The notes beneath the pieces are model-generated. The model made no database searches, was not told the DNA's origin, and saw only the letters and a program-made list of their open reading frames with translations. Made by a program: the position numbers and the translations under genes. Source: Candidatus Heimdallarchaeota archaeon (GTDB lineage Archaea > Asgardarchaeota > Heimdallarchaeia > JABLTI01). From it: 64,000 bases of DNA. The stretch lies in the NCBI GenBank assembly GCA_019056785.1, contig DXJV01000085.1, forward strand, positions 16,476 through 80,475. The letters are read 5' to 3'. Shown here one piece after another: positions 37,961-46,525 of this stretch (the first letter of the stretch is position 1; each line of letters starts with the position of its first letter).

Positions 37961-38362
37961 TCAAAAAAAAATGCGAAAAAGCTCCTCAATCTCGTCCAAA
38001 TATCTTTTAGCTGATTGTGTTGCTAATCCTGCTCTCCGGGCTTTTTGTCCCTTAAACTTTAAGGCCATCGTGAAATGATCGGACCGGCAGATCAATAAAC
38101 TTCCTTGCTCCGTGCGAATATTCATATGTCGAAAATTATCTTGTGAGTCAATACTTTGGAGGGCTAAAAGAGAGCTAATGCTTCTGATGGTATCAATTAA
38201 CATTGCAGCTGTTCCTTCAACATTTATGGATCCTTTATGTTCATGGACACTACAACATGGCAAGCCTTCTTCTGTAGTAAGAACAATATCAGATGCGCCT
38301 GCTTTTTCCATCAGCTCTTGGAGCAGTTTTTCTGCTGTAACATTTATTGACTCATTGTTCAT
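37961..38362 (-). CDS. Roadblock/LC7 domain protein
   Basis: IVLTTEEGLP, TAAM, HMNIRTEQGSLLI, AGLA pattern; 133 aa. Confidence 0.75.
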   Translation of the reverse strand: MNNESINVTAEKLLQELMEKAGASDIVLTTEEGLPCCSVHEHKGSINVEGTAAMLIDTIRSISSLLALQSIDSQDNFRHMNIRTEQGSLLICRSDHFTMALKFKGQKARRAGLATQSAKRYLDEIEELFRIFF

Positions 38363-38513
38363 TACTATACCTTCTCATCAATAACCTCAAATTTCTGCAT
38401 AGTCCACTGGTTAAAATTTTTTAAGTTTGTTTATCAATAATGAAGAAAGTCACTCTCCTATAAAGATTTAGTGTTATGAGCAGTTGTCTATTCTCAAGAA
38501 TTCATACAATGGC

Positions 38514-39269
38514 TCAGAATAATACTGGATAGGCAAGTTCGTGGAGTACCTCATATTTTTTCGGATCAAAGTCACTCTCGTCAAGCAACTCATTCAAAAA
38601 GCTAAACTCATATTCGTTAAGTCCCACAGGGAAGATTTTATGGTCAATGTCTTCTTTTGGCACTTCGAAAAAGCGTATTAATAATGGCCCAAGATAACCA
38701 GTTTCAACATAAATTTGTACAATCCAATGGAAATACTTCATAAGCTCTTTAATGGTTGTATGCTCAATTGCATCTGCAATGATATGGTACGAGCTCATCA
38801 AAGCTGCCCGGCGGGTGAGGTAATCTTTTGTGTTTCCAGCTTCGATAAGGTCTGGCAGCAGGTCAAGGTTTGCGTAAGAACTTAAAGCCATGATGACAGC
38901 ATATTGTAAATCTTCTTTGCTTTCGCGCAGAATTTTGAGAAGGATCGGAAGTGAATCTTGATGGCCAATACGCCCAAGCGTTTCTATCAGCGCTAATTTT
39001 TTCGCAAGAGAGGCTATTAATACCTCTGTGTGAATTCTTTGGATAAGTTCTTCTTGCGGTTTTCGCTCGTAGATTTTTGCTAGTGCCATCGAGCAGGCGT
39101 TTCTAACATTCCAAGAGCGGTCTTCAAGTCCCGCAAATAACACCTCGAGGGATTCTTTCCCACCGACTTCGAGAAGTTTTAACGCGCCACGAACACGGTC
39201 TATTTCTTTTTCAGACCCAAGACGCTTTTTCGCTTTGGAGCGTTGGAATGCTTTTTTAATAAATGCCAT
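38514..39269 (-). CDS. HEAT-repeat (PBS-lyase type) protein
   Basis: LEDRSWNVRNACSMALAK, ALIETLGRIG, LQYAVIMALS repeats. Confidence 0.8.
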   Translation of the reverse strand: MAFIKKAFQRSKAKKRLGSEKEIDRVRGALKLLEVGGKESLEVLFAGLEDRSWNVRNACSMALAKIYERKPQEELIQRIHTEVLIASLAKKLALIETLGRIGHQDSLPILLKILRESKEDLQYAVIMALSSYANLDLLPDLIEAGNTKDYLTRRAALMSSYHIIADAIEHTTIKELMKYFHWIVQIYVETGYLGPLLIRFFEVPKEDIDHKIFPVGLNEYEFSFLNELLDESDFDPKKYEVLHELAYPVLF

Positions 39270-39271
39270 CT

Positions 39272-40876
39272 TTATTTGCCTCCATCCTCTTTTTGGCTGA
39301 CAATCTCCTCGATGAGAAGGCGTACCGCTGTTAATTTTGAATGGCTCATCTTCTTCAGATGAGAGTAATCAATATTTTTCTTCGAGCTTGAAACGCCATA
39401 AATTGCCTCTGATTTTCGCCCTGTATCTTCTTCGTCTCCTTTTTGTTCAGCTTTTTGTGCTGTAATGAAGTCGAAGAGCTCTTTTGATATATCAATTGCT
39501 CTGGTATAAATTGGTATGTCCCATGGAGAAATGGGATTATCCTCTAGATATCCCACAGAAAGTAATGTCCCGACAATCATTCTATCCATTTTTTTGAACA
39601 TAATCACATCAGGAAAGCCGGGTGTAGGCATTACAAAGTCCTGTCGGTAAAGCAGGCTATGATTATGGAGGATAAGTAATTGTTCAAGGCTGATAGATTC
39701 ATCGTCTATTTCGAAAACATAGACTGGTTTAGAGTTGACTTTTACATACCCATAAAATTGGAATGCCTTGCTATTTTCCAGCCATTGACCAACACTTCGG
39801 CATTGGTTTTTATTCAAGAATTTAATATAATCATCGAGTTGATCCCATTCATGTTCATAGATGTTCCAAGTTTTCCGCCAATAGCCACTTGTATCTGCAT
39901 GCCAATAGACATTTGTTGCTTGACTTGCTTCCCGAAGCTCTTTCAGGAGTCGTCGTACTTGGGCGCCGCCACCTGCTTTATTAATCAAGTCTAAATCGTT
40001 TGTTAATTGTAAGGTTTGCTTGATGATTTCTTGAGGTTGGTCTTTAATTTCTTCAAAGGCTTCTTCTAACATCCGGTAGGAAAGTTTGTTGATTGGAGGG
40101 CCATAAATTGGCTTGAGAAAGCGAGGAACTGTACTGAAAGGATATTCGCCTTTCTCGAGTATTTTTTCACCGATTTTCATATGGATGTAATTTGCAAATG
40201 CTTCTCTCAGGAAACCAGTGAGATGTTTCTTCTTTACAAGTTCAGCCCGTTTATTGAGAATGGAAATCACTTCTAGTAGGAAGTTTTGAAAGAGCGAGAC
40301 CTTTCGGGAGCTTTCAGGAGGGACGTAGAATTCTTGCACACCAAAAGAGGAGAGCAAACGAATAACCGCCACCATGTCTTGGAAATAGGGCAAGCCCCAG
40401 GTGGCATTTTTGGTTTCTTTTAAACCATATACGTTATTTACAATTAACTCTTTGATGATCATATCTATTCTATAGATTTCAGAAAGAATCTCACTGTCGT
40501 TAGAGGCACTTTTCTCTGCAAAATAGGCGTGAGCAAAAGCATGGATGAACATCATTCGTAATGTGAAATCTCTGTCTGGACTCTCTTTGAACTCAAAAGG
40601 CAAGCTAAGATAAATCATTGTTGGCTTACTTGGAAAGACAGATATGCATTCATCGGGGAGGAAGTTTCTATTGCGGGATTTCCGTAAATTGTCAATCATT
40701 TCTTGGGAGAGTACGGCAAACGGACTGCCACCTAATTCGATTACTTGGTAAAGGCTCGCATGAAGGTCGGGGTCAATGAAGAGAAGGACCTTATAGTCCT
40801 CCGGTGTTTCGCCGACAAATTCTTGGAAGTCTTTTCGTGCTTGTTTATAAATTTCAACCACTCGCGGATTGTCCAA
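39272..40876 (-). CDS. Divergent SpoVR/YcgB-like zincin-fold protein
   Basis: IHAFAHAYFAEK and TGFLREAFANYIHMKI resemble the SpoVR motifs AHVYGHxDFF and TKIMNEGWASYWH; lies directly after AAA+ and VWA genes. Confidence 0.55.
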   Translation of the reverse strand: MDNPRVVEIYKQARKDFQEFVGETPEDYKVLLFIDPDLHASLYQVIELGGSPFAVLSQEMIDNLRKSRNRNFLPDECISVFPSKPTMIYLSLPFEFKESPDRDFTLRMMFIHAFAHAYFAEKSASNDSEILSEIYRIDMIIKELIVNNVYGLKETKNATWGLPYFQDMVAVIRLLSSFGVQEFYVPPESSRKVSLFQNFLLEVISILNKRAELVKKKHLTGFLREAFANYIHMKIGEKILEKGEYPFSTVPRFLKPIYGPPINKLSYRMLEEAFEEIKDQPQEIIKQTLQLTNDLDLINKAGGGAQVRRLLKELREASQATNVYWHADTSGYWRKTWNIYEHEWDQLDDYIKFLNKNQCRSVGQWLENSKAFQFYGYVKVNSKPVYVFEIDDESISLEQLLILHNHSLLYRQDFVMPTPGFPDVIMFKKMDRMIVGTLLSVGYLEDNPISPWDIPIYTRAIDISKELFDFITAQKAEQKGDEEDTGRKSEAIYGVSSSKKNIDYSHLKKMSHSKLTAVRLLIEEIVSQKEDGGK

Positions 40877-42254
40877 GTCTCATACTCTCCGTTACAATTG
40901 TTTTTGCCAAAACATCCATCCTTGATGGATCAATAACAATAGGATAGGTTATTCCTCGCAAGGCTCTTCTTGTATCGCGATACAGGTCAGTAAGTTTTAG
41001 CCGTTCAGAGCCAATGATGAAATAAGAGACCTTCCATGTTCGGCTCTGGTCGCGTATGGCGTCCCGGAGTAAGCTATTAATTTCAAAGTAGCAATTTCGT
41101 GTTACCGGGTCAATCCCCCCTGAGCGTTCTTCTTCGAAGTAATTTATAAGACTCTGGGAGGGGGTAGGTTCATAGCCTGGGATAAGCTCATTCGGTCTGC
41201 CATCAGTAACAATAATTAAATGAACGTCTCGATTTTGGGTGTTTTTCTTGACTTTCGCGTGTTCTATTGCTGTTTTAATAGATGCACTCATTGGAGTTCG
41301 TCCTTTTGCTGTTGCTGTTAGCAGGAAACGTTCTAGCTGGTCCTCAGAAGTGATAATTTGCCTTGTTTTCGATATTGGTACAACAGCCGTTCGAAAGGCT
41401 CGCTGATTTGTCCTGCGAGTCCGTCCTTGTCGTTTGAAATAATAAAAGATCGCCAGTGAAGTTAGAAGCGCACCTTCCAGACGTGAAAAATGAGTCCCTT
41501 GAACAACATTCCTCATAGATTGCGAAGTGTCAACGATAAGATAGATTTGCGCATTTCGGTCCTTTTTCATGACAACAATATCATCAATATCGATAGACTT
41601 TGGGGGAATCGTCTGTGAGGTGAAAATAGAGTGTTCAAAGGTTTTTTTCTTGTGAATTTTTCCTCGAGGGCGTACAATTGTGTCATTGACCGGTCGTGCT
41701 GGAAGTTGTCGCGCTAACCAATTGCCAAGCTGGTTGCCGAGAAAGTCCATCACTTCTTCCCGTTTAATGCGCATTTTATGTCCAAATCTATCGGTGATTT
41801 CAATATCAGTCAATTCCTCAAGTGTGCGAAGTGACTCTGTGAGTTGTTTTTTGTATTCTGCTGTTCCTTCGAAGCCTTTCAAATGTCGCTGGATGAATTG
41901 TTCGATTTCCTCTCGTGTCTGCAATTCGCCCATGTTCACTTTTAATAAAGCATCCGGTAGTGCATTGTTGCCAATATACTCAAGTATTTCCAACTCGCGA
42001 ATCAAGTCTTCTTCCTCGAGTGGCTCCATTGGAGTGACCAGAAGCCTGTGTTGTATGTTTTTTACAGCAACGGCATTTTCAAGAGCCATACCTAAAACCA
42101 AAGCCTCACGTGAGCTCTGTCCTTTCCGGGGATCACGCCATTTCTGAAGGACACTTGCAGCATCGGCAAAGTCGAACACAAAATCAGGGTCACGCCACAC
42201 CATCAAAGGGTCTGTGAATCGCTCTCGACTGATTACGTGTATTCTGTGAGGCAT
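40854..42254 (-). CDS. VWA domain protein (YeaH/Rv0959-like partner of the AAA+ ATPase)
   Basis: MIDAS IVDTSQSM, GRTPM, IIVTDGRPN. Confidence 0.85.
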   Translation of the reverse strand: MPHRIHVISRERFTDPLMVWRDPDFVFDFADAASVLQKWRDPRKGQSSREALVLGMALENAVAVKNIQHRLLVTPMEPLEEEDLIRELEILEYIGNNALPDALLKVNMGELQTREEIEQFIQRHLKGFEGTAEYKKQLTESLRTLEELTDIEITDRFGHKMRIKREEVMDFLGNQLGNWLARQLPARPVNDTIVRPRGKIHKKKTFEHSIFTSQTIPPKSIDIDDIVVMKKDRNAQIYLIVDTSQSMRNVVQGTHFSRLEGALLTSLAIFYYFKRQGRTRRTNQRAFRTAVVPISKTRQIITSEDQLERFLLTATAKGRTPMSASIKTAIEHAKVKKNTQNRDVHLIIVTDGRPNELIPGYEPTPSQSLINYFEEERSGGIDPVTRNCYFEINSLLRDAIRDQSRTWKVSYFIIGSERLKLTDLYRDTRRALRGITYPIVIDPSRMDVLAKTIVTESMRLGQSASG

Positions 42255-42305
42255 TTTATTTGCTCTCCAATTTTCTTAAAGTGTTCTTTAATCATTCTTT
42301 CGTTT

Positions 42306-43868
42306 TTAGATATGGTCTACAAGTAGCAATTGTTCATAGCTTGGTTTTAATTGTGAAATGACCGCTTCTTGTATTTTCTTTGGCTGCTTTTCTAAGCCTT
42401 CATAAGCAATTATGATTTTACTTAGTTCCTCATCTGTCAATGCTTTCATTTTATCAATATCTTCAGAAATTGATTGCACCGTTGTCAGTTCCTCGTCAGT
42501 TTTAATAGTTCGTCGAAGCATGGTCTTTACTTCTTGCATAGCATCATTGATGAGGTTTCTTGGAATATCGAAGAGCTCGACAATGCGTTTTGCGTCATCT
42601 AATGTGAGCATTGCAACACTGTTTTGTTTATAAAACTCATCCTTTCGGAGAACGGTCTCACCAATGAGCGAATAAAGAGTACGTAAGTCAACATGAGGAG
42701 TCTTTTCGGGGTCATGAATTTCAATTAAAGATTTAAAGAACATATCTCGAGTAACTTTCTTACGAGCATAAGCTTCAGTTTCGCCGGATTTTAGTGCATT
42801 AGGAATTGAGAGGTCAGCCATCAAACCGATGAATTGAATTGCTAGTTTGCTGACACCTTTCTTACCAAATTGTTTTGTCTTCTCGAGAAGTGATACTAGG
42901 GCAGGATTTGCTGTCATATCATTTAAGCAGAGTGTTAAATGCTCTTTAAACATGTCTTCAACGATCTTGATACGTTCGAGTTTTGTTCTTGCTGGCCACA
43001 GAACTTCAGGAATACGATTGATAATTGGTTGTGCTTCTTCACCAAAAACACTAAGTGGAGCATTTGAAGTAAAGATCATTGCACCGTCTACGAAAACGGG
43101 TCGACCTTGAATACTATATTTGATACCGCTTGGGTCCTCGAGGAAACCCATTAAGGCTTCCAAGAAATTCAATGGTAAACGCTGGATTTCGTTCACAACA
43201 ACAAACCCTTGGGAGAGAACACCAACTTTATGTGCCATCGGAGAAAATGTTGTTGAAGTTTTGCCACCGAACAATTGCTCAAGGTTTTCCACCCCTGCGA
43301 GGAGCATGTATAGCCCTTCTGGGTCATTTCGAGGGTCAATTTGAGCAACATTTACAACAGTCTTGTCAGCTTTTACAGCGTTTAAAGCTTTTATGACTTG
43401 CTCTGTCTCGAGAGCTAAGATATCATTACTTCTGTCGAGATTAATATCTTGATTTGTCACTTTCTTAATCGACTCAGCGATATTTTGCTTACAGAAAGGA
43501 CAAAGATTCTTCAAGACTTCTGCAGAAGCAGCAGGATCCTTAGCATAATTTTCTGCAATATGAATAAGATACCCGGCATCTTCATTAAAGGGGCAACCAG
43601 CTATATGGTATTTCCGCTCATTAATAGCGTTTGTGAGATGCTTAAGGATTGTTCGAGCAAAAAGAGTCTTGGCTTCTCCAGTAGGACCAATTAATAAGAC
43701 CTTTCCAGAGACAGCAATCTTGTCCATCACAATTCCTTTCGAATGGACGTTTCCGCGAACAGCAGGATCTTCATTGATTTGTTTTCGCAATTCAGGCTCA
43801 TTTAATAATCTTCGAACAGAACATCCTTTATATCCTTTCTTCGCAAGGGACGCTATTGTCATCGTCAT
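42306..43868 (-). CDS. AAA+ ATPase of the PrkA/YeaG / Rv0958 (chelatase-like) group
   Basis: Walker A variant GPTGEAKT, IAGCPFNED...LCPFC zinc-like motif, Walker B variant VVVNEIQR, IFTSN sensor 1, IINRI arginine finger. Confidence 0.8.
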   Translation of the reverse strand: MTMTIASLAKKGYKGCSVRRLLNEPELRKQINEDPAVRGNVHSKGIVMDKIAVSGKVLLIGPTGEAKTLFARTILKHLTNAINERKYHIAGCPFNEDAGYLIHIAENYAKDPAASAEVLKNLCPFCKQNIAESIKKVTNQDINLDRSNDILALETEQVIKALNAVKADKTVVNVAQIDPRNDPEGLYMLLAGVENLEQLFGGKTSTTFSPMAHKVGVLSQGFVVVNEIQRLPLNFLEALMGFLEDPSGIKYSIQGRPVFVDGAMIFTSNAPLSVFGEEAQPIINRIPEVLWPARTKLERIKIVEDMFKEHLTLCLNDMTANPALVSLLEKTKQFGKKGVSKLAIQFIGLMADLSIPNALKSGETEAYARKKVTRDMFFKSLIEIHDPEKTPHVDLRTLYSLIGETVLRKDEFYKQNSVAMLTLDDAKRIVELFDIPRNLINDAMQEVKTMLRRTIKTDEELTTVQSISEDIDKMKALTDEELSKIIIAYEGLEKQPKKIQEAVISQLKPSYEQLLLVDHI

Positions 43869-43906
43869 TTTTTTTTCACACTCACTTTTTAAACTTCAAT
43901 TTTTTT

Positions 43907-44455
43907 TCAATGCTTTTTTTCACTCTTTCTGGAAGAGGACTTCTTTTTAAGTACTTTGGGTTTAATCCCAAGAGTTTCAATGTACATATCCAGCCATTCC
44001 AAACAGGCCAGTATGTCTTCTTTTTTATTTTCATGAATTTCTAAAACATTCCAGAGTCGATCTGTCAGACGAATGAGAGAAAAGGCTTCGATAATCTCTG
44101 ATTTTGTTAGAGCAATGGCTTTTTCAGCATTGTAACTCGCAATGAGGATGGGTATGTTTGCGGTTCGAGTGTCCCAAACGAATGTCTCCCAGAGGAATTC
44201 CTTAATCTTTGAAAGTTCGTCCATCTTTGTCGCGTTTACGATAAATATTGCACCATCGGTTTTTTTCAACACCGAGTCTGGTATCGTTCTATCAAAATCC
44301 GGTTCCTCAATAGAAAAGGTGTAATGCGGAATGTTCTCTTTTGGATTCTTCACTTCTTCTTTGATGATGTTGATAATGTAGTCTCGAGTGTCATTCTTTT
44401 CACCAAGTAAGAGAATATGTTTGGGTGGTTTTTGTCGTTTGAACATTGTTTTCAC
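43907..44455 (-). CDS. Arf/Arl-like small GTPase fold with degenerate G motifs (pseudo-GTPase)
   Basis: HILLLG then EKNDTRD in place of the P-loop; TDGAIFIVNAT, NIPILIASY, DRLWNVLE, ILACLEWL. Confidence 0.7.
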   Translation of the reverse strand: MKTMFKRQKPPKHILLLGEKNDTRDYIINIIKEEVKNPKENIPHYTFSIEEPDFDRTIPDSVLKKTDGAIFIVNATKMDELSKIKEFLWETFVWDTRTANIPILIASYNAEKAIALTKSEIIEAFSLIRLTDRLWNVLEIHENKKEDILACLEWLDMYIETLGIKPKVLKKKSSSRKSEKKH

Positions 44456-44706
44456 CGCAAGAGGAATGTTGTATTCAAGGCATCCTGAGTTTAATGAATC
44501 CTTCTTCCATTAAAGCTTTAGAGCGTTTTTTTTGGTGGCAGTTTTTGTTATTAAATTATTTTGTTATTCTTTTTATTCTTACAATGCCACCAATTTTACT
44601 GATTGTAGGAATTCATGTTTAAAAAGCTGTTGTTAGAAAAATTAAAAAAAGGTTCAAAAAGTTATTCAATAATAACCTCCACTATTTTTGCTGAAGGTGT
44701 AATTCA

Positions 44707-45399
44707 TTGGGTGAAAAAGAACTAACGAAACAACCAGCAGAAGAACAAGAAATTCTTACGCCCGAAACAGAAGAAGAAAGAGAAGAGGAAAAGGGAGTAT
44801 CAACAAGTGAAGAAGAGCAATCTTTCCGGACAGATTTTAGCCTGCCAATCAAAATCAAGCGGATAAAAATTCTCATTGCAATTGTTATTAACCTCATTCT
44901 GGGAGGAGTCACAACAAGTATGGGCATTTATTTCTTTGTAAAACCTCAAGTAAACAATTCAACATATAATGTCATCTTTGCGATTTTTATGGTACTTTTT
45001 GGTGGCATTATCTTTCTCCAATTTCCCTTTGTTATGGCCCGTACTATCAACTCGCAACTGATCCTTTCTGGTGAAGAAATCAAATTGCGGAATGCCTTTA
45101 GCTGGAAAAAGGTCCTATGGAGAGAGGTAGAAGAGATTCTTGCCCGTGAAAAACTTTCAAAAGATCTGGCTGAAAGCGAGTTACTTGCCGTGGACTTGAT
45201 ACGCTTCCGTACAGTAACAACAAGCATTCATTTCCTCGTAGAAAATTACCCTGCTGCAGATGCAGATGAAATGCTTCTTGCAATCGCCAGAACCTTCGAG
45301 CGTGTTTTAGAAGGTACGGATTTTGAAGTAGAAGAGCGTACAGAACGACCTTCTTTACAAACACGATTGCGCTATTTTGTTAAGGTAGCTAAAAAGTAA
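44707..45399 (+). CDS. 2-TM membrane protein with a bacterial PH-like soluble domain
   Basis: Acidic N-tail, two TM helices, then LILSGEEIKLRNAFSWKKVLWREVEEI. Confidence 0.65.
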   Translation: MGEKELTKQPAEEQEILTPETEEEREEEKGVSTSEEEQSFRTDFSLPIKIKRIKILIAIVINLILGGVTTSMGIYFFVKPQVNNSTYNVIFAIFMVLFGGIIFLQFPFVMARTINSQLILSGEEIKLRNAFSWKKVLWREVEEILAREKLSKDLAESELLAVDLIRFRTVTTSIHFLVENYPAADADEMLLAIARTFERVLEGTDFEVEERTERPSLQTRLRYFVKVAKK

Positions 45400-45463: not shown

Positions 45464-46525
45464 TTATTTCTTAGTTTCAGCTTTCATTCGTGATTGTGCT
45501 ATGAGTTCAAAACCCATGGCGTTGCACATTACGGGATTATCTGGAATAACAACTTCATCCGGTGACTTAACAATATTGGATTCCCACATCTTTTGTTTCA
45601 GCACTTCACCGAAAACATGAGCACCACCACCGGTAAGTATCACGCGTTCAATCCAAGCATCAGGTGGTAGGGTTCCCAATAATCTCGAGGTTTCATCGAT
45701 GATTATTTCTGAAATGTTTTCGATGTAATAATTCTTCACTTCAGAGACATCGAATTGTTGGCCACTTACCATGACCGCTGAAAGATTCTTCTCGATGGTC
45801 TTCATTAAATCAAAGGGCCGGATGATCTTTCCTGTTTGTTCTTGCAAAGTTCGAGCCATCCGTGTTGTGAGGGTGTCAACAGCTTCTTCTAAGCTCCCAC
45901 TTGCGGTTCGCATCAATCTTCCTTGATATACTGTAAGAATGTCTGTGGAGCCATGACCAATGTCTACAATAATCGCATCAACAGCACGATTTTCACCAGA
46001 TGTTTTCAAAATTTGATAATAAGAGCCATAGGGTTCTGGTAAGACAAGGCATTTCTCAACCACAACATTATAATTGAGCGTTTCTCCAGTGGCATCGTTG
46101 CGTACTTTAATGTTCATCTCTTCGGAGAGTCCTTTGGAGAGCGTGGACATTTCTTCTTGTGAAGTTGCCACAGGCACACCTGTCGCAATAAGAATATGTT
46201 CGCCATCATTTTTAATGAAAAGAGAAAGCGCTGCTTTAATGGCTATCACAGCATCTTTAATGCTTTTCATTTTTCCTTCCGAAGCTAAGGGACGTTTAAT
46301 TTCACTTTGTAAGCGTGCTAATTCACCCACGAAGAAGTTTTGACCTCCTTCCTCCAGTACCAGGTTGTTTTCCAATGACTTGTCAAGAGTCATGCCAGTC
46401 CAACCAGGATTCGGATCACCAATGATTGAGGGAATTCGTATCAATTTCTTTCCGGTGTCCGAAGACATTTTAATAGTACTAGTTCCCAAGTCAATTCCGA
46501 CAGTTCGTAATACTTTTTTTGACAC
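45464..46525 (-). CDS. Actin-like ATPase, ParM/StbA/MamK-like
   Basis: GIDLGTSTIK (phosphate 1), IPSIIG, FVGELA, LPEPYG, VDIGHGSTD (phosphate 2), ILTGGGA (adenosine), NAMG. Confidence 0.88.
   Translation of the reverse strand: MSKKVLRTVGIDLGTSTIKMSSDTGKKLIRIPSIIGDPNPGWTGMTLDKSLENNLVLEEGGQNFFVGELARLQSEIKRPLASEGKMKSIKDAVIAIKAALSLFIKNDGEHILIATGVPVATSQEEMSTLSKGLSEEMNIKVRNDATGETLNYNVVVEKCLVLPEPYGSYYQILKTSGENRAVDAIIVDIGHGSTDILTVYQGRLMRTASGSLEEAVDTLTTRMARTLQEQTGKIIRPFDLMKTIEKNLSAVMVSGQQFDVSEVKNYYIENISEIIIDETSRLLGTLPPDAWIERVILTGGGAHVFGEVLKQKMWESNIVKSPDEVVIPDNPVMCNAMGFELIAQSRMKAETKK

Follow-up and report, generated by a model that had tools for sequence, protein, structure and literature searches.

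The window analysed here, a 64,000-nucleotide stretch of DNA from Candidatus Heimdallarchaeota archaeon (GCA_019056785.1, contig DXJV01000085.1, positions 16,476-80,475 of the forward strand), carries six co-oriented genes which encode, in this order, an Arf-fold protein, an AAA+ ATPase, a VWA protein, a 534-aa protein, a HEAT-repeat protein and a Roadblock/LC7 protein (Table 1). The locus is probably a very diverged PrkA(YeaG)-YeaH-SpoVR(YcgB) machine, specific to Heimdallarchaeia and vertically inherited, with the HEAT protein and the Arf-fold protein, a pseudo-Arf, as added subunits. In its known form, carried widely by bacteria and haloarchaea, the PrkA/YeaG-YeaH-SpoVR trio is tied to nitrogen starvation and sporulation, and its biochemistry is unsettled. 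The three genes are strongly cofit, with r>0.7 in six bacteria, and act as one unit (bioRxiv 10.1101/072470), and a haloarchaeal signature cluster consists of two PrkA genes, DUF444 and SpoVR (PMC3102087). The window locus would extend this trio to an Asgard class labelled Heimdallarchaeota, in a version missed by the curated family models.

The central genes of the locus follow the order AAA+ ATPase, VWA protein and SpoVR-fold protein, which is the order of the bacterial trio and is found as PrkA-YeaH-SpoVR in 28 of 80 bacterial SpoVR loci from many phyla that served as reference. The genes are tightly coupled or overlapping in both cases, and the 23-nt overlap of the VWA gene with the SpoVR-like gene in the window has its parallel in an overlap of 4 nt in the Sphingobium trio. 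In other genomes, the order AAA+-VWA-SpoVR-like-HEAT is conserved in all 29 related loci examined, 10 long ones that span five families and 19 short ones, and the identity to the window proteins across these loci drops to about 50% for the AAA+ protein, 37% for the VWA protein, 29% for the SpoVR-like protein and 23% for the HEAT protein. An arrangement that recurs in this way across other genomes is not due to chance.

The remote homology of the AAA+ protein rests on alignments of 39 PrkA, 44 YeaH and 81 SpoVR sequences taken from the bacterial reference. The hhalign comparison of the AAA+ family with the 39-sequence PrkA alignment gives Prob 95.6 and E 1.1e-8, and the 187 matched columns extend from Walker A through sensor 1; all non-cognate pairs remain at E of at least 0.02. 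This signal appeared only with the diverse alignments of 39-81 sequences; with single E. coli sequences or alignments of five sequences hhalign did not discriminate, and generic AAA+ proteins equalled YeaG. The AAA+ family and PrkA have in common the motifs cP.hE, LcPxCr, tG.id..kI and TNE/SNA as well as a Walker B that has no Asp. Walker A, Walker B and the spacing of 160 residues between K67 and E227 are invariant among the AAA+ homologues. The Cys-bearing insert between the Walker motifs, compared alone and without these motifs, matches the PrkA insert with Prob 90.7 and P 1.2e-6, and the controls give P of at least 0.01. These comparisons support the AAA+ protein as a highly diverged PrkA-like ATPase which carries a PrkA-type Cys insert. 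Residues 287-445 form an AAA+ lid in its AlphaFold2 (AF2) model.

The VWA protein resembles YeaH beyond the VWA domain itself. The VWA family aligns with YeaH over 173 columns (Prob 92.8, E 4e-7), and the aligned stretch opens some 65 residues ahead of the VWA domain; the pre-VWA part alone gives P 4.2e-4, with controls at 0.11 or higher from a control set which holds no generic VWA alignment, the VWA_2 search having given one locus. The VWA domain is recognised by Pfam VWA_2 (8.3e-5) on residues 238-352 of the 466-aa protein, and its metal-ion-dependent adhesion site (MIDAS; D-x-S-x-S, T, D, residues in Table 1) is invariant among the VWA homologues. The DUF444 model PF04285 finds no match at E<=1 in this protein, on which Pfam recognises just the generic VWA_2 and VWA_CoxE, each below cut-off. 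A diverged YeaH is the assignment supported by the profile alignments.

The 534-aa protein is matched by nothing in Pfam, and the SpoVR models (PF04293, PF24755) find no match on it and none across the genome at E<=1. Its AF2 model (predicted local distance difference test, pLDDT, 76; predicted template modelling score, pTM, 0.75) has SpoVR clusters as its three best matches in a fold search of the atlas, in which query and targets are both predicted models. In the best of these the template modelling score (TM) is 0.55 for the query and 0.66 for the target, and the 376 aligned residues, which span positions 2-514, cover both domains. H112 and H116 of the HxxxH motif and E225 are invariant in 19 homologues. 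The segment IHAFAHAYF aligns in register with AHV.gHcDFF of SpoVR, which belongs to the AH(x)3-4H..FFKNN motif (weak P 0.014), and the region from E225 (EAFANYIH) aligns in register with MNEGWA (weak P 0.0012). As in SpoVR, the HxxxH lacks the catalytic Glu of zincins. The model supports a SpoVR-fold protein, and the HxxxH...E motif of this protein is metal-site-like.

The initial annotation had taken the central three genes for a highly diverged PrkA/YeaH/SpoVR triad, had pointed to the HxxxH/E motif of the third protein and had set a structural comparison of that protein beforehand as one of the tests on which the assignment could fail. The profile matches to PrkA and YeaH and the SpoVR likeness of the fold agree with it, and the motif is invariant. 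The likeness to PrkA holds for the insert and the AAA+ core, and is not detectable in the C-terminal PrkA domain.

Several observations weigh against this assignment. None of the operon proteins is matched by a PrkA, DUF444 or SpoVR model of Pfam or NCBIfam, even at E<=1; for the 520-aa protein this includes AAA_PrkA (PF08298), and a genome-wide search with PF08298 misses the gene as well. The C-terminal kinase-like domain of PrkA is not detected by PF06798, and hhalign of the C-terminal parts gives P 0.13. The core of the AAA+ protein is poorly modelled by AF2, with pLDDT under 50 at residues 176-291, and although the two best atlas matches of the model are PrkA clusters, their TM values (0.39/0.32 and 0.28/0.45) are all below 0.5. 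The match of the 534-aa protein to SpoVR is not significant by sequence alone (full-length hhalign E 0.015, best slice 0.0012). In language-model features, the AAA+ protein lies nearest to archaeal AAA_5/Mg_chelatase clusters and not to PrkA, and the VWA protein nearest to VWA_2/Rv0959-type clusters and not to DUF444.

The language-model neighbours, with scores of 0.93-0.97, are what would be expected if the locus encoded a generic maturation chaperone made up of a MoxR/ChlI-type AAA+ protein and a VWA protein, like CbbQ-CbbO, NorQ-NorD, CoxD-CoxE or CobS-CobT, of which the 534-aa metal-binding protein would be the client or a metallochaperone; the resemblance to the trio would then be convergent or at superfamily level only. 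The sole Pfam AAA matches of the 520-aa protein, weak ones to AAA_5, Mg_chelatase and Sigma54 which are confined to the Walker A stretch, point in the same direction, as does the cobaltochelatase-type VWA model TIGR02442 (4.2e-8), the only NCBIfam match of the 466-aa protein. Walker A of the form GxxGxAKT is also present in Heimdall MoxR, in some cases together with NE in Walker B. Some canonical Heimdall MoxR (AAA_3) proteins, seen at loci L145 and L146, have Asn in place of Asp in Walker B (MVVNEILR) and the Walker A GxPGxAKT, and because they carry both, neither an Asn Walker B nor a GxPGxAKT-type Walker A is specific to the PrkA-like protein.

The extent of the matches makes such a chaperone unlikely. 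The profile of 27 Heimdall MoxR proteins, used as a control, matches the AAA+ family over 43 Walker A columns only (E 1.6e-5), against 187 columns for PrkA, and the insert alone, which matches the PrkA insert well, gives just P 0.014 with MoxR. Among the MoxR models, AAA_5 (PF07728) reaches 20.6 bits on the 520-aa protein over 24 residues, below its cut-off of 22, and AAA_3 (PF07726) is not matched. Known pairs of this kind (RavA-ViaA, CbbQ-CbbO, NorQ-NorD, Rv0958-Rv0959) also combine an AAA+ ATPase with a MIDAS VWA protein and have similar language-model features, but the window AAA+ protein resembles the MoxR profile at Walker A only and has the long insert of PrkA type. The third protein is SpoVR-like in its predicted fold, and the genes stand in the order of the PrkA trio.

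Compared with the bacterial trio, the proteins of the PrkA-like locus have the Cys-bearing insert and the Asp-less Walker B of PrkA, the pre-VWA segment and MIDAS of YeaH, and a predicted SpoVR fold, in which HxxxH...E(G/A)(W/F)A motifs align in register but weakly. They differ in that they escape the Pfam models of all three families and in that the AAA+ protein, with 520 aa against 631-667 aa in PrkA, is 110-150 aa shorter and has no detectable C-terminal PrkA domain. The features that outlast this extreme divergence would be the Cys insert, the MIDAS site and the HxxxH...E site, and they point to the AAA+ core, and not the kinase domain, as the conserved engine of the trio.

The distribution of the genes was followed in a sample of 400 Asgard genomes, 58 of which belong to families f1-f5 of the class of the window and 342 to other groups. 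The five families make up one Asgard class, with the source labels Heimdallarchaeota, Heimdallarchaeaceae and Kariarchaeaceae, and f1 is the family of the window itself. The SpoVR-like protein is present in 53 of the 58 genomes, in one copy each, and in none of the 342 others; it is also found in none of 22 genomes of a sixth family of the class. The AAA+ gene has a matching distribution, with 54 of 58 genomes in f1-f5 and 0 of 24 in f6-f7. In 5.8 billion proteins the SpoVR-like protein has 29 relatives, of which every named one is labelled Asgard, Heimdallarchaeota or Thorarchaeota, and a profile search recovers only 19 clusters among 1.84 billion representatives. The HMMER profiles A1 and A2, the latter of the AAA+ family, find no relatives among PDB sequences. 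The E. coli, Bacillus and Sphingobium records give no match to the profiles A1-A3 either, a negative that carries no weight, since the prefilter let almost no candidates through. The window system is in this way confined to five families of one Asgard class, unlike the bacterial trio. The haloarchaeal cluster is likewise an archaeal version of the trio and a lineage signature, but its genes are recognised by the canonical family models, as seen for Haloferax in control searches, its PrkA is duplicated, and its four genes as published include no Arf or HEAT partner (PMC3102087). The literature searched contains no paper that connects PrkA or SpoVR with Asgard archaea.

Of the 400 Asgard genomes only 2 have canonical SpoVR, on short contigs in both cases, so the window-type trio is the only PrkA-YeaH-SpoVR-like trio in these genomes. 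The canonical genes lie at L172 and L174 (genome G080) and at L173 (genome G151), with E from 2e-150 to 8e-59, in fragmented metagenome-assembled genomes, and either contamination or recent transfer could account for the two occurrences. Among the variants of the window system, the most distant one (L045) has identities of 37% for the AAA+ protein, 28% for the VWA protein and 19% for the SpoVR-like protein. In this variant a TnpB-like gene (Cas12f1-like_TNB, L045:3580-5184) lies between the AAA+ gene and the oppositely oriented VWA and SpoVR-like genes. The AAA+ ATPase also occurs outside the operon context: a homologue 42% identical to that of the window (L044:8001-9551), on a contig labelled Promethearchaeota, has no VWA, SpoVR-like, HEAT or pseudo-Arf neighbours.

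The conservation bears on another reading, according to which the locus would be a MoxR-vWA-effector type of NTP-dependent conflict or defence system and the zincin-like protein its effector. Triads of AAA+, vWA and peptidase-like proteins are known that function in conflict or degradation (PMC3495828), and the bpMoxR family is among the language-model neighbours, with a score of 0.95. The genes of the window are, to the contrary, single-copy and near-universal in the five families, about 50% identical across them, and keep a constant place among housekeeping genes, which around the operon encode dCTP deaminase, an SSB-like protein, a DNA alkylation repair protein, the actin-like ALP and a DEAD helicase. 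Mobile-element genes are not found nearby, save for the TnpB insertion of the distant variant, the HxxxH motif comes without the catalytic Glu, and PADLOC misses all core proteins and reports the HEAT protein only, through a generic HEAT-ARM repeat model. A defence role is very hard to reconcile with these features.

The two genes that flank the trio appear to belong to it. The Arf-like protein matches Pfam Arf (PF00025) at 2.6e-7 and 30.7 bits (cut-off 22.3), on residues 62-158 only, which is its C-terminal half. The nucleotide-binding motifs G1 GxxxxGK(S/T), G3 DxxG and G4 NKxD are missing in all eight pseudo-Arf orthologues, in which G1 reads like LLLGEKNDTRD, and the C-terminal Arf helices are retained, with W89, W94, S126, L127, R129, D132, R133 and W154 invariant. 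By its sequence the protein is a pseudo-GTPase which has lost nucleotide binding, and not a working Arf. It is a clear example of how a member of the Arf family in Asgard archaea became fixed as a pseudo-GTPase within a conserved operon. Judged by its orthologues, the gene probably has its true start at the ATG at 44446, three codons past the GTG.

The HEAT protein (Pfam HEAT_2, 2.8e-17), of which one orthologue has a faint resemblance to Adaptin_N, is encoded after the SpoVR-like gene in all 29 loci, with a gap of 2 nt or an overlap in each. Complex prediction covered the one pair of HEAT and pseudo-Arf, which scores 0.80 (runs 0.80, 0.78 and 0.81), whereas the best of three controls scores 0.00. 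This mark was attained by 58 of 80 solved complexes against 2 of 110 mismatched pairs, a calibration which is only roughly valid given the custom alignments. The runs have at least 57% contact agreement and a partner pLDDT of at least 76. Six of 11 invariant pseudo-Arf residues fall within the predicted 20-residue interface (p 2.7e-4); on the HEAT side of the interface conserved residues are not enriched. The two proteins are thus predicted to form a heterodimer through the conserved face of C-terminal helices of the pseudo-Arf, and not through its switch regions. It counts against this prediction that the pass may lean partly on solved Arf/Arl-solenoid complexes.

The pseudo-Arf has orthologues (E<1e-24) in f1-f3 and f5 only, and in about 40 genomes its gene immediately precedes the AAA+ gene. 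Against a strict linkage, the gene is displaced or unlinked in f2 and in a single f5 genus, and f4, in which only weak matches are found, is probably a further case. Where the pseudo-Arf is not adjacent, an FKBP-type peptidyl-prolyl isomerase is encoded upstream of the AAA+ gene at L023:3534-4172 (f2) and L025:12731-13480 (the one f5 genus). In f4, a 436-aa WD40 beta-propeller gene (L024:10358-11668) follows directly after HEAT on the same strand, at a locus with no clear adjacent pseudo-Arf, and its product may take the place of an accessory subunit. At L028 and L044 the genes that precede the AAA+ gene were considered as candidates and rejected, neither of them being a pseudo-Arf.

The roadblock protein matches Robl_LC7 (PF03259) at 7.3e-6 and 26.1 bits (cut-off 23) on residues 10-98. 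This paralogue stands beside the cluster in 10 of 12 f1 genomes and has no other occurrence in the class at E<=1e-8. The 151-nt gap before its gene contains TTTATA-like and AAAATTTTAA boxes (38400-38470, minus strand), so the gene may have a promoter of its own. Roadblock proteins regulate GTPases, as in MglA-MglB and Rag-Ragulator. The window is similar to these in that a roadblock/LC7 protein is encoded near a protein of small-GTPase fold, but here the GTPase is dead and the roadblock gene is restricted to one family. With a dead pseudo-Arf, an action of the roadblock protein as GTPase-activating protein or guanine-nucleotide exchange factor would be without a substrate.

The initial annotation had joined the Arf-like and HEAT genes to the triad, and the synteny across families together with the passed complex prediction upholds this. 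It had also described a GTPase-roadblock module, which is not a general feature, as the roadblock gene is part of the cluster only in f1. The survey of Asgard gene neighbourhoods that it had proposed gives the same division, with the four-gene order in all 29 loci, the pseudo-Arf next to the AAA+ gene in about 40 genomes and the roadblock gene beside the cluster in f1 only.

The pseudo-Arf, HEAT and roadblock genes might instead be mere conserved neighbours, whose unrelated functions would lie in the membrane or GTPase biology of Asgard archaea. This would fit the unlinked pseudo-Arf of f2, of one f5 genus and probably of f4, and the roadblock gene which lies behind its own upstream gap in a single family. 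It is made improbable by the HEAT gene, which trails the SpoVR-like gene so closely in every locus, by the phyletic range of the pseudo-Arf, which is that of the triad except for f4, and by the roadblock paralogue of window type, which is found only beside the cluster. The predicted HEAT-pseudo-Arf pairing, with conserved pseudo-Arf residues at the interface, speaks for a shared function too. No relatives of HEAT or pseudo-Arf are found within 6.5 kb of the 80 bacterial SpoVR genes, and their conserved presence in the operon is a further difference from the bacterial trio.

What is established for the diverged-trio reading is the order of the genes and its conservation, the motifs, the remote homology and the prediction that HEAT and pseudo-Arf pair; all the biochemical steps and the physiological role are inferred. 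The HEAT and pseudo-Arf genes would have been added to the trio in this lineage. The AAA+ ring would use ATP to remodel a client or to hand it over, the VWA protein would couple the AAA+ protein to the SpoVR-like protein through its MIDAS site, and the metal site of the SpoVR-like protein would be where the client is bound and possibly processed. HEAT and the pseudo-Arf might together serve as a nucleotide-independent adaptor or scaffold which chooses the client or the place, and the roadblock paralogue of f1 is perhaps a further adaptor. A machine for remodelling or hand-over is proposed because the kinase and protease activities reported for PrkA are disputed, both being negligible for B. 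anthracis PrkA in a 2026 study (PMC13001217), and it follows the MoxR-vWA-peptidase model (PMC3495828), in which the AAA+ protein is the engine, the VWA protein the adaptor and a peptidase-like protein the third component. The third protein of that model is transglutaminase-like, unlike the SpoVR fold predicted here. A role in adaptation to stress or starvation is probable by analogy with the known trio, from which the starvation/dormancy switch suggested by the initial annotation is likewise carried over.

A precedent for the accessory pair is AAGAB, whose N-terminal pseudo-GTPase domain binds adaptin solenoids (PMC12490416). In AAGAB, and by prediction in the pseudo-Arf, a small-GTPase fold without nucleotide-binding motifs serves for protein binding, with the HEAT solenoid as the predicted partner here; the likeness to AAGAB is one of principle and not of sequence comparison. 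The predicted interface differs from those of AAGAB and Arf/Arl-solenoid pairs in being made by C-terminal helices and not by switch regions, and the partner is a small 250-aa HEAT protein encoded in an AAA+ operon. As a tentative and rather speculative picture, an ancient stress-response AAA+/VWA/SpoVR machine may have been joined to a eukaryote-like pseudo-Arf/HEAT heterodimer, and in one family to a dedicated roadblock protein, in a complex of five or six subunits in which the dead GTPase is a fixed adaptor on a solenoid. If true, pseudo-GTPase/adaptin-type assembly modules would have a counterpart among prokaryotes in the joined machine, which would also be the first PrkA trio whose targeting subunits can be identified; such subunits could reveal the target of the trio. 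The HEAT and pseudo-Arf proteins may mark the client or the location, and they offer a new handle on the trio.

Table 1. Genes of the operon and its upstream region, with positions in the window
Feature	Position	Strand	Description
Arf-fold pseudo-GTPase	43907-44455	minus	182 aa; first gene of the operon
PrkA-like AAA+ ATPase	42306-43868	minus	520 aa; Walker A GPTGEAKT, Walker B VVVNE, Cys-bearing insert of ~130 aa between them
YeaH-like VWA protein	40854-42254	minus	466 aa; MIDAS D242, S244, S246, T320, D351 intact
SpoVR-fold protein (predicted fold)	39272-40876	minus	534 aa; HxFAHA 112-117, E225-x-F-A, WH 325-326, HNH 404-406 all invariant
HEAT-repeat protein	38514-39269	minus	251 aa; 2 nt after the SpoVR-like gene
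Roadblock/LC7 protein	37961-38362	minus	133 aa; family-specific addition past the 151-nt gap
AT-rich intergenic region upstream of the first gene	44456-44681	minus	read from sequence; putative operon promoter

The open reading frame list agrees exactly with the six co-oriented frames, coordinates and spacings of the initial annotation; along the six genes the intergenic spacings are 38, 51, -23 (overlap), 2 and 151 nt. The AT-rich region upstream of the first gene is likely the promoter of the operon, as judged from its sequence. A scan for bacterial-type promoters and terminators, whose model is bacterial and not applicable to archaea, shows no excess over shuffled sequence, with 17 promoter-like sites against a shuffled mean of 15.6, and 5 terminator-like sites against 6.0. 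Just upstream of the operon are a gene for a 230-aa protein without a Pfam match (44707-45399, plus strand) and the actin-like ALP/ParM-type gene (45464-46525, minus strand), which matches ALP_N at 1.4e-15 and MreB-like_C at 5.6e-15. In another genome of the genus (L003), a pair with matching lengths and Pfam families is present at the equivalent position.

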